DNA of 64,000 nucleotides from Escherichia coli (GTDB lineage Bacteria; Pseudomonadota; Gammaproteobacteria; Enterobacterales; Enterobacteriaceae): the NCBI RefSeq assembly GCF_001677475.2, contig NZ_CP015229.1; one strand, 5' to 3'. Below are positions 30,057 through 59,419 of the stretch, one piece after another; the first letter of the stretch is position 1; every line of letters starts with the position of its first letter. Made by a program: the position numbers and the translations under genes. The notes under the pieces were generated by a model, which saw only the letters and a program-made list of their open reading frames with translations, had not been told where the DNA came from and did not search any database.

Positions 30057-30132
30057 TGGTGCCCGGACTCGGAATCGAACCAAGGACACGGGGATTTTCA
30101 ATCCCCTGCTCTACCGACTGAGCTATCCGGGC
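30057..30132 (-). tRNA. pheU: tRNA-Phe (anticodon GAA), 76 nt
   Basis: Reverse complement reads GCCCGGATAGCTCAGTCGGTAGAGCAGGGGATTGAAAATCCCCGTGTCCTTGGTTCGATTCCGAGTCCGGGCACCA, the canonical E. coli tRNA-Phe. Confidence 0.95.
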
Positions 30133-43509: not shown

Positions 43510-43635
43510 ATGATGAAACGCCTTATCGTTCTTGTTTTGCTTGCCAGCACGCTGCTCACGGGCTGTAACACCGCTCGCGGTTTCGGCGAAGACATCAAAC
43601 ATCTCGGCAACTCCATCTCTCGCGCTGCCAGCTAA
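43510..43635 (+). CDS. ecnA: Entericidin A small lipoprotein, 41 aa (absent from the ORF track)
   Basis: ATG 43510 to TAA 43633..43635 encodes [41 protein letters not shown] (signal peptide plus lipobox LTGC). Confidence 0.85.
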
Positions 43636-43745
43636 TTTTTCTTCTCTTCCGAAAAATCATCAGATTTCCGTCATTTTTGGCGATGTTGTCTATTATTAAT
43701 TTGCTATAGGCAAACATAAATAACATTACCTAAAAGGAAGACGTT

Positions 43746-43892
43746 ATGGTGAAGAAGACAATTGCAGCGATCTTTTCTGTTCTGGTGCTTTCAACAGTAT
43801 TAACTGCCTGCAACACCACGCGTGGCGTTGGTGAAGACATTTCTGATGGCGGTAACGCGATTTCTGGTGCAGCAACGAAAGCGCAGCAATAA
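43746..43892 (+). CDS. ecnB: Entericidin B small lipoprotein, 48 aa (absent from the ORF track)
   Basis: ATG 43746 to TAA 43890..43892 encodes [48 protein letters not shown], paralogous to EcnA, with a GGAAG SD. Confidence 0.85.
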
Positions 43893-43900
43893 GCAATAAC

Positions 43901-43935
43901 GGTACGACAGCTGTGTCGTGCCGTTTGTTTTCTCT
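43901..43935 (+). terminator. Putative ecnB terminator
   Basis: Stem GGTACGAC...GTCGTGCC (43901..43922) followed by GTTTGTTTTCTCTG. Confidence 0.55.
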
Positions 43936-44004
43936 GCGATAGTCACAAAGGTAATAGTTGAAATTCCCCTGCCACCTGGCAAAATATCCGTTCAACCATC
44001 AGCT

Positions 44005-44049
44005 TTGCAGGACGACCTGCAAACGCGTCTTTTCACCGGGGACGGCCCC
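44005..44049 (+). promoter_or_regulatory. Candidate guanidine-II (mini-ykkC) riboswitch in the gdx 5' leader
   Basis: Two hairpins each closed by an ACGR tetraloop: TTGCAGG-ACGA-CCTGCAA (44005..44022) and GGGG-ACGG-CCCC (44038..44049), 15 nt apart, 19 nt upstream of the gdx ATG; this is the mini-ykkC architecture typically found upstream of SugE/Gdx-type exporters. Confidence 0.65.
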
Positions 44050-44067
44050 AATTCTCCGGAGCCTGAT

Positions 44068-44385
44068 ATGTCCTGGATTATCTTAGTTATTGCTGGTCTG
44101 CTGGAAGTGGTATGGGCCGTTGGCCTGAAATATACCCACGGCTTTAGTCGTTTGACGCCGAGTGTTATTACTGTGACGGCGATGATTGTCAGTATGGCGC
44201 TACTTGCCTGGGCGATGAAATCGTTACCAGTAGGGACGGCTTATGCCGTGTGGACGGGTATTGGCGCAGTCGGCGCGGCCATCACCGGCATTGTACTGCT
44301 CGGTGAGTCCGCTAACCCGATGCGCCTGGCGAGTCTGGCGTTAATCGTATTGGGGATTATTGGTCTGAAACTCAGCACTCATTAA
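44068..44385 (+). CDS. gdx: Guanidinium exporter Gdx (SugE; SMR family), 105 aa
   Basis: ORF 43918..44385 recognised as SugE/Gdx; the recognised N-terminus [25 protein letters not shown] starts at ATG 44068 with a GGAG SD. Confidence 0.92.
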
Positions 44386-44915
44386 CTACCGGGTTGCTGT
44401 ACCCAAATAAACTTACTGACATCAAACCCTTCCCGGGTCGCGACTGCCAGCATTTCCTGTTTCACTTCGTCAGAAATGGTTGGCGTGCGGGAGAGTATCC
44501 ACAGGTAGTCGCGGTCCGGACCGCAAACCAGCGCATGGCGGTATTCCCGATCGAGCGCAATAACGTTATAACCGCCATAGAAAGGACCAAAGAATGACAC
44601 TTTCAGCGCAGCGCGAGTTGGTGCGCCGGTAAAGTATGCTTTCCCTTCACTCTGTTGCCACATTTCTCTGTCAGGGTTATAGCCTTTATTAATGACATTC
44701 AGGCCGCCGTCATCCCGCAGGCTGTATGTTGCGGTGACTTTTTCCAGTCCACGTTCAAAGCGGTGATCAAAACGGGCAATCTCATACCAGGTACCGAGAT
44801 AGCGTTTAGCATCGAAATTATTCACTACGGTCACGCCACGGGGCGGCGTAGGAGAACTGCAGGCAACGACCAGAAATGCAGCTGTCGCTGCGGCAACGAG
44901 AGGGAGCAGGCGCAT
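44382..44915 (-). CDS. blc: Outer-membrane lipocalin Blc, 177 aa
   Basis: Protein [49 protein letters not shown]... recognised as Blc; convergent with gdx and overlapping it by 4 nt. Confidence 0.92.
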
Positions 44916-58999: not shown

Positions 59000-59075
<76 letters not shown>

Positions 59076-59232
59076 AAATTTGAAAAGTGCTGCAAAGCAC
59101 AGACCACCCAATCGCAGTATTTCGAATTGCGACAAGGCGGCAACTGAACGAATCCTTGGGAGCTTACAAAAGTAAGTGACTAAGGTGAGTGAAGGCAGCC
59201 AAGGCAGTAGCGGTTCGAAAGACGAAGATTAA

Positions 59233-59308
<76 letters not shown>

Positions 59309-59343
59309 AAATTTGAAGGTGCTGTAAAGCACAGACCACCCAA

Positions 59344-59419
<76 letters not shown>

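Follow-up and report, generated by a model that had tools for sequence, protein, structure and literature searches.

The 5' leader of gdx (sugE) in this Escherichia coli DNA carries two short hairpins that make up, with a probability we put at about 0.93, the guanidine-II (mini-ykkC) riboswitch of the E. coli chromosome. All coordinates refer to the window, by which we mean the whole 64-kb (64,000-nucleotide) stretch that was analysed. The identification draws on the motif itself, its membership in the covariance-model family, the identity of the downstream gene, and conservation with covariation, and is complemented by literature reports of ligand binding by the exact P1 hairpin, of a kissing-loop interaction in the E. 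coli aptamer, and of derepression on deletion of P2. The riboswitch is already known and is not a new discovery, as studies of its crystallized P1, of its aptamer by NMR and by smFRET, and of a P2 deletion have been published. The practical value of the finding lies in annotation, since a track based on open reading frames (ORFs) overlooks the riboswitch. The element accounts for the E. coli guanidinium exporter Gdx staying silent until guanidine accumulates, and is relevant to guanidine physiology, to tolerance of some quaternary cations, and to the recently reported tolerance of caesium.

Several studies have addressed the element directly. Huang, Wang and Lilley crystallized the RNA 'E. coli P1_8bp', UUUGCAGGACGACCUG(BrC)AAA, with guanidine bound (PDB 5NDI; PMC5486947). 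A 49-nt E. coli sugE aptamer was studied by Schamber et al. using NMR and SAXS, and guanidinium was found to be bound by P1 (loop ACGA) and only poorly by P2 (loop ACGG); at NMR concentrations the isolated aptamer formed a P1-P1' dimer and not an intramolecular kiss (PMC9300104). The smFRET study of Fuks et al., on a 47-nt E. coli aptamer, detected a ligand-dependent intrastrand kissing state (PMC9094411). Kojima and Ito reported that the caesium-resistant E. coli strain ZX-1, which carries a 20-bp deletion from -30 to -11, expresses gdx constitutively, and that in the wild type the gdx-dependent Cs+ resistance is induced by Gdm+ (PMC13064478). E. coli is also listed as a guanidine-II carrier in reviews (PMC12186494).

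Two ACGR hairpins directly upstream of gdx

The first hairpin, P1 (44004-44023, + strand), consists of an 8-bp stem formed by 44004-44011 and 44016-44023 around an ACGA loop (44012-44015), with the sequence TTTGCAGG-ACGA-CCTGCAAA, identical to the crystallized E. coli RNA UUUGCAGGACGACCUGCAAA of PDB 5NDI. By homology, G44014 is probably the loop guanine that contacts guanidinium. A 14-nt linker (44024-44037, +; CGCGTCTTTTCACC, or as RNA CGCGUCUUUUCACC) leads to the second hairpin, P2 (44038-44049, +; GGGG-ACGG-CCCC), in which 4 bp between 44038-44041 and 44046-44049 close the loop 44042-44045. The Shine-Dalgarno (SD) sequence GGAG (44058-44061, +), labelled as such also in Fig. 1 of PMC13064478, begins after an 8-nt spacing from the end of P2 and lies 6 nt 5' of the gdx ATG (44068-44070). 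The original prediction of tandem ACGR hairpins ahead of gdx thus agrees with the sequence, loops and coordinates within one base; its distance of 19 nt to the gene is exact when counted from 44049 to the A of the ATG, and its separation of 15 nt between the hairpins holds to within one base, the linker being 14 nt when P1 is taken as 8 bp.

The class-defining features of guanidine-II RNAs are set out in PMC5558903 and PMC1950547. The two tetraloops, ACGA and ACGG, are each closed by a stem, with two G-C pairs adjoining each loop (GG-ACGA-CC at 44010-44017 and GG-ACGG-CC at 44040-44047). Linkers in the class range from 7 to 40 nt and vary in sequence (PMC5558903); that of the window, at 14 nt, varies within E. 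coli at position 44027 and also between species. Ninety percent of guanidine-II motifs lie at most 33 nt from the SD of a guanidine-related gene (PMC1950547), and here P2 ends 8 nt ahead of GGAG and the downstream gene encodes a SugE/Gdx equivalog.

A search against Rfam returned a match to RF01068 (Guanidine-II, mini-ykkC) at 44004-44050 (+), with 49.3 bits (gathering score 32), which covers all 48 positions of the model and has E-values of 9.5e-7 (whole window) and 3.6e-9 (local search). This mini-ykkC search had been named beforehand as the one that could refute the proposed class, and its outcome was a clear match. RF01068 and four tRNAs are the sole Rfam matches in the window. The tRNAs are ordinary features of the chromosomal region, three being identical, in tandem at 59000-59416 (+) and with an anticodon loop consistent with Gly-GCC, and one more lying at 30060-30132 (-). 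A permissive Rfam search of 43880-44120 added to guanidine-II just a chance-level match to RT-17 (16.9 bits, gathering score 40.4), and guanidine-I, guanidine-III and guanidine-IV had no match at the gathering score in the window or in 80 related loci. The pattern GGACGRCC-N(7-37)-GGACGRCC occurs at one site in the window and was absent from all 100 shuffles of it that preserved dinucleotides, and the lone octamer GGACGRCC is unremarkable in the window (2 seen, 3.07 expected). Chance occurrence of the motif is ruled out by the pattern shuffles together with the covariance-model E-value.

The regulated gene, gdx (sugE; 44068-44385, +), encodes a protein of 105 amino acids (plus the stop codon) of the SMR family of guanidinium exporters. 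Residues 1-104 match the NCBIfam SugE equivalog model NF008512 with 193.5 bits (cutoff 126), bearing out the proposal that an SMR guanidinium exporter lies downstream, and the scores of the protein against EmrE and Qac models are far under their cutoffs. RefSeq annotates sugE at this position, under the protein name 'quaternary ammonium compound efflux SMR transporter SugE' and not as the guanidinium exporter Gdx. The gene order epmB-efp-ecnA-ecnB-gdx(sugE)-blc-ampC identifies the stretch as E. coli chromosome. No riboswitch or regulatory feature is annotated at the element in the seven RefSeq E. coli records inspected (among them NZ_JALDNN010000001.1, NZ_CP012125.1, NZ_CP049118.1, NZ_CP041678.1, NZ_CP010219.1 and NZ_CP071522.1), as had been anticipated of an ORF track, and for the 25 leader matches listed the annotated feature under the match is given as 'none'.

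Directly 5' of the leader are the lipoprotein genes for entericidin A (antitoxin; 43510-43635) and entericidin B (toxin; 43746-43892), the former of which (ecnA) the RefSeq record that matches best marks as a pseudogene. The end of ecnB at 43892 is followed by a strong hairpin resembling an intrinsic terminator (43898-43925, +), a 12-pair stem with a T-run after it (TGTTTTCTCT), which was found by a consensus scan only and could delimit the gdx transcription unit on its upstream side. A predicted sigma-70-like promoter (43958-43985, +) consists of TTGAAA, a 16-nt spacer and TGg-CAAAAT, with 9 of 12 consensus matches and an extended -10 TG; one such site was found and 1.1 are expected by chance, so that it counts as a prediction and not as evidence. 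This promoter would place the 5' end at about 43992-43994 and give a leader of about 75 nt. At its other end, gdx (+, stop codon 44383-44385) is convergent with blc (-, 44382-44915), and the 3' ends of the two genes share 4 nt. A 155-aa ORF with a GTG start (43918-44385, +) runs in frame across the riboswitch into gdx and is an artefact, the frame being open ahead of the true ATG, which lies at 44068. Such a reading may go back historically to Greener et al. 1993, whose title, as cited in PMC12186494, speaks of 'two nested open reading frames'.

Conservation in E. coli and across species

Of 5426 complete E. coli genomes, 5425 contain the 801-bp stretch 43700-44500, with at least 99% identity in just 335 of the 5425 and 95-99% in most, and 5424 contain the intergenic leader of 175 bp, with at least 99% identity in only 52. 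As so few genomes are at least 99% identical over the stretch and the leader, the window comes from a less common E. coli lineage. In an alignment of six leaders (the window and five matches spread across the identity ranking), the aptamer, the SD and the start codon are invariant save for two substitutions, a linker polymorphism at 44027 (G in the window and in UPEC129; C in DH1, which derives from K-12, and in the other three strains sampled) and C44054T in UPEC129.

E. coli UPEC129 (locus L006; NZ_CP071522.1) has a rearranged upstream region, in which ecnA and ecnB are missing and homology to the window restarts only shortly downstream of the predicted gdx promoter, at about 43995, which puts the riboswitch and gdx about 100 nt after efp. 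Its C44054T substitution falls between P2 and the SD. With the promoter region absent, transcription of gdx in this strain would need read-through from efp or a new promoter.

Across species, 80 loci were taken from contigs of one genome per species, chosen with the Gdx protein as the sole query. RF01068 was found at the gathering score in 45 of these 80 Gdx-homologue loci, in 44 directly upstream of the gdx homologue and on the same strand, and it was upstream in all 19 Enterobacterales loci that have upstream DNA. Eight further loci have tandem ACGR hairpins scoring below the RF01068 threshold, and no other riboswitch family matched in the 80 loci at the gathering score. In Mesorhizobium ephedrae (L073), a second RF01068 match, at 245-289 and near the threshold (34.5 bits, gathering score 32), lies about 20 nt 5' of a gene that encodes subunit A of F0F1 ATP synthase (309-1058; NF004482, 369.9 bits), and the gdx homologue downstream has tandem ACGR hairpins of its own, below the threshold. 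For a guanidine-II motif, a gene for the ATP synthase a subunit makes an unusual neighbour.

For analysis of covariation, the 45 leaders (42 distinct) were aligned without gaps, anchored on their loops, and pairs were counted for both stems. Standard pairs occupy 95.6% of stem cells, compared with 70% in shuffles, a figure to be read with the caveat that the aligned leaders are Rfam hits and hence biased towards paired sequences, even though protein was the sole criterion in choosing the loci. Changes on both sides of the pair were seen for 9 of 12 stem pairs, including 7 of 8 in P1; in P2, where 98.8% of cells are paired, the pairs either covary among the homologues or are conserved. The covariation score of 0.684, compared with 0.187, was reached by none of 500 shuffles, and the signal collapses when the pairing partners are shifted by 1-3 columns. 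G-U pairs in the stems and the strand-specificity of the loops speak for structure at the level of RNA and against a DNA palindrome. Together with the position of the element at homologous genes, the covarying stems lend support to the guanidine-II identity proposed from the hairpins, as do the RF01068 match and the SugE/Gdx gene.

It is extremely improbable that the hairpins sense nothing and are a chance or decayed motif, a transcription terminator or a DNA operator palindrome. A terminator scan does list P1 followed by CGCGTCTTTT (44004-44033), the ACGG hairpin P2 binds ligand poorly in vitro, and the thermodynamic switch predicted below is small. However, P1 with its T-run was rejected as a terminator, as the run starts 5 nt beyond the stem, the conserved two-hairpin unit adjoins the SD, and the family is described as exclusively translational (PMC9561414). 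A chance or decayed motif is at odds with a covariance-model match over the full length, with a pattern that no shuffle reproduced, and with retention of the element in essentially all E. coli, and an operator palindrome is at odds with covariation that includes G-U pairs and with strand-specific loops. In addition, an identical P1 was crystallized in complex with guanidine, loss of P2 has a consequence in vivo, and the published data already point toward a guanidinium response.

Predicted coupling of P2 to the ribosome-binding site

The gdx riboswitch would operate as a translational ON switch. When guanidinium is absent, the SD and start region would be base-paired and few ribosomes would load. 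Rising guanidinium would bind to the ACGR loops and stabilize a 'kissing' contact between P1 and P2, formed by two C-G pairs, which would lock both hairpins and expose the ribosome-binding site; the Gdx guanidinium/H+ antiporter would then be translated and would export the ligand. Ligand-dependent ribosome loading was demonstrated for the Pseudomonas aeruginosa member of the class in a RelE assay (PMC9561414).

The segment that pairs with the SD in the OFF state was addressed by folding 43992-44100, a region that includes the SD, which the published constructs of 47-49 nt lack. Both the minimum-free-energy structure and the ensemble predict an OFF-state helix (44044-44063, +) in which 44044-44049, comprising the loop bases G44044 and G44045 and the 3' strand of P2, pairs with 44058-44063 (GGAGCC), with one C-A mismatch, and which is extended by GGGAC (44039-44043) paired with GUCCU (44070-44074; the G of the AUG plus UCCU). 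In the ensemble of the free full leader, P1 is predicted to be formed almost all the time (pair probability 0.84-1.0), and P2, which competes with the OFF-state helix, has a pair probability of just 0.22. The predicted share of SD pairing is 0.55 for the P2 loop and 3' strand, 0.01 for the linker and 0.00 for the P1 side, and the duplex energies of these segments with the SD region are -8.5 kcal/mol (P2 loop and 3' strand), -4.6 kcal/mol (5' flank) and -3.5 kcal/mol (linker). There is about an even chance that the P2 loop and 3' strand (44044-44049) constitute the anti-SD of this leader, in which case the switch would be thrown by the formation of P2 itself. They are also the predicted SD partner in 12 of the 13 closest relatives (L007-L019), the exception being L015, which is without upstream DNA. 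For E. coli and its close relatives together we hold a tentative version of the same mechanism, judged slightly less likely than not, in which the role of anti-SD falls to the P2 loop and 3' strand, with the ligand-contacting G among their bases, and not to the linker; P2 would be mostly unfolded in the OFF state, and its ligand-driven capture by the pre-formed P1 would be the switch. If true, this refines a known riboswitch and does not define a new kind of element.

The current published model for E. coli instead treats the linker as a putative anti-SD (PMC9300104, PMC9094411): its pyrimidine run UCUUUU (44028-44033) would pair with the SD, and kissing of P1 and P2 would pull the linker off. 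The linker, including this run, is fairly conserved among close enterics, and is the predicted SD partner in Hafnia, Serratia, Providencia and some others (L021-L023, L032 and L057). In the leader of the window, however, the linker-SD duplex is predicted to be weak, its -3.5 kcal/mol requiring two G-U pairs, and it takes up one hundredth of the SD pairing in the predicted ensemble, so that we regard the linker as an unlikely anti-SD here, at perhaps one chance in four. The ZX-1 deletion, which maps to 44038-44057 of the window and removes the entire P2 and AAUUCUCC, fits a P2 anti-SD. ZX-1 is constitutive although it retains the linker, and it is compatible with a linker anti-SD as well, because the deletion also brings the linker next to the SD, so that the strain gives no clean discrimination.

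The P0 helix proposed for P. aeruginosa by Reiss and Strobel, as outlined in PMC9561414, offers a further way to cover the ribosome-binding site, in which the OFF state has the SD-AUG region paired with the 5' flank of P1. The window has a candidate for such pairing, as AUCAG (43998-44002) complements CUGAU (44063-44067), and four relatives (L016, L020, L008 and L032) have strong 5'-flank complements to the SD, of -9.4 to -12.1 kcal/mol. The P0-like duplex of the window is, however, of 5 bp only (-4.6 kcal/mol), covers the spacer and not the SD core, and is absent from the predicted ensemble; the transcription start is itself merely predicted, and the 5' flank may be very short. A P0-type switch therefore seems improbable for this leader, distinctly more so than one based on the linker.

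The SD region of Bradyrhizobium-type leaders (GGAGGGUCGUC) complements the whole P2 loop and 3' strand, with -13.9 kcal/mol. The leaders of Hafnia, Serratia and Providencia are predicted to pair their SD with the linker or with some other segment. With other relatives predicted to use the linker or the 5' flank, the expression platform appears to be heterogeneous across the family. The base following GGAG is C in 11 of 13 leaders with G at position 4 of the P2 loop, and is U in 9, C in 9 and G in 7 of those with A at this position, a covariation that is confounded by phylogeny and only suggestive; in an automated version of the test, with the register taken from the P2 3' strand alone, registers were ambiguous for runs of G.

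The computed energies support the direction of the proposed switch and not its size. The predicted cost of opening the SD-AUG region is 6.5 kcal/mol in the free leader, 5.7 kcal/mol with P1 and P2 enforced, and 4.7 kcal/mol with a ZX-1-like deletion, and the minimum free energies of the two states differ by 0.6 kcal/mol. The predicted drop of 0.8 kcal/mol on formation of the hairpins is small because a second local hairpin (44055-44059 with 44073-44077) also covers the SD in the prediction, even when P2 is formed. The fold of the whole leader is no more stable than those of shuffles (z = -1.33).

Comparison with known guanidine riboswitches

Every tested feature of the element agrees with the E. 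coli sugE/gdx guanidine-II riboswitch, of which the P1 sequence of PDB 5NDI is part. From the K-12 leader it differs by one linker base (G44027 here, C in K-12), with no structural difference. The guanidine-II riboswitch of P. aeruginosa (PDB 5VJ9), a translational ON switch that responds cooperatively to millimolar guanidine (PMC9561414), belongs to the same aptamer class and likewise regulates a SugE-like gene. The P2 loop is ACGA in P. aeruginosa and ACGG in E. coli, and the anti-SD proposed for P. aeruginosa is P0, in which the 5' flank or linker pairs with the SD, whereas here the P2 loop and 3' strand are predicted to have this role.

For the Gloeobacter violaceus riboswitch (PDB 5NOM, 5NDH), Huang et al. 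proposed an alternative stem-loop that overlaps both P2 and the ribosome-binding site and excludes the folded riboswitch (PMC5486947). The organism and sequence differ from those of the E. coli leader, and the logic is the same as that of a P2 anti-SD, which is a proposal in both RNAs. The guanidine-I (ykkC), guanidine-III and guanidine-IV riboswitches share the ligand and control overlapping sets of genes, including gdx/sugE, whereas their folds are unrelated to that of guanidine-II, and guanidine-I and guanidine-IV act on transcription.
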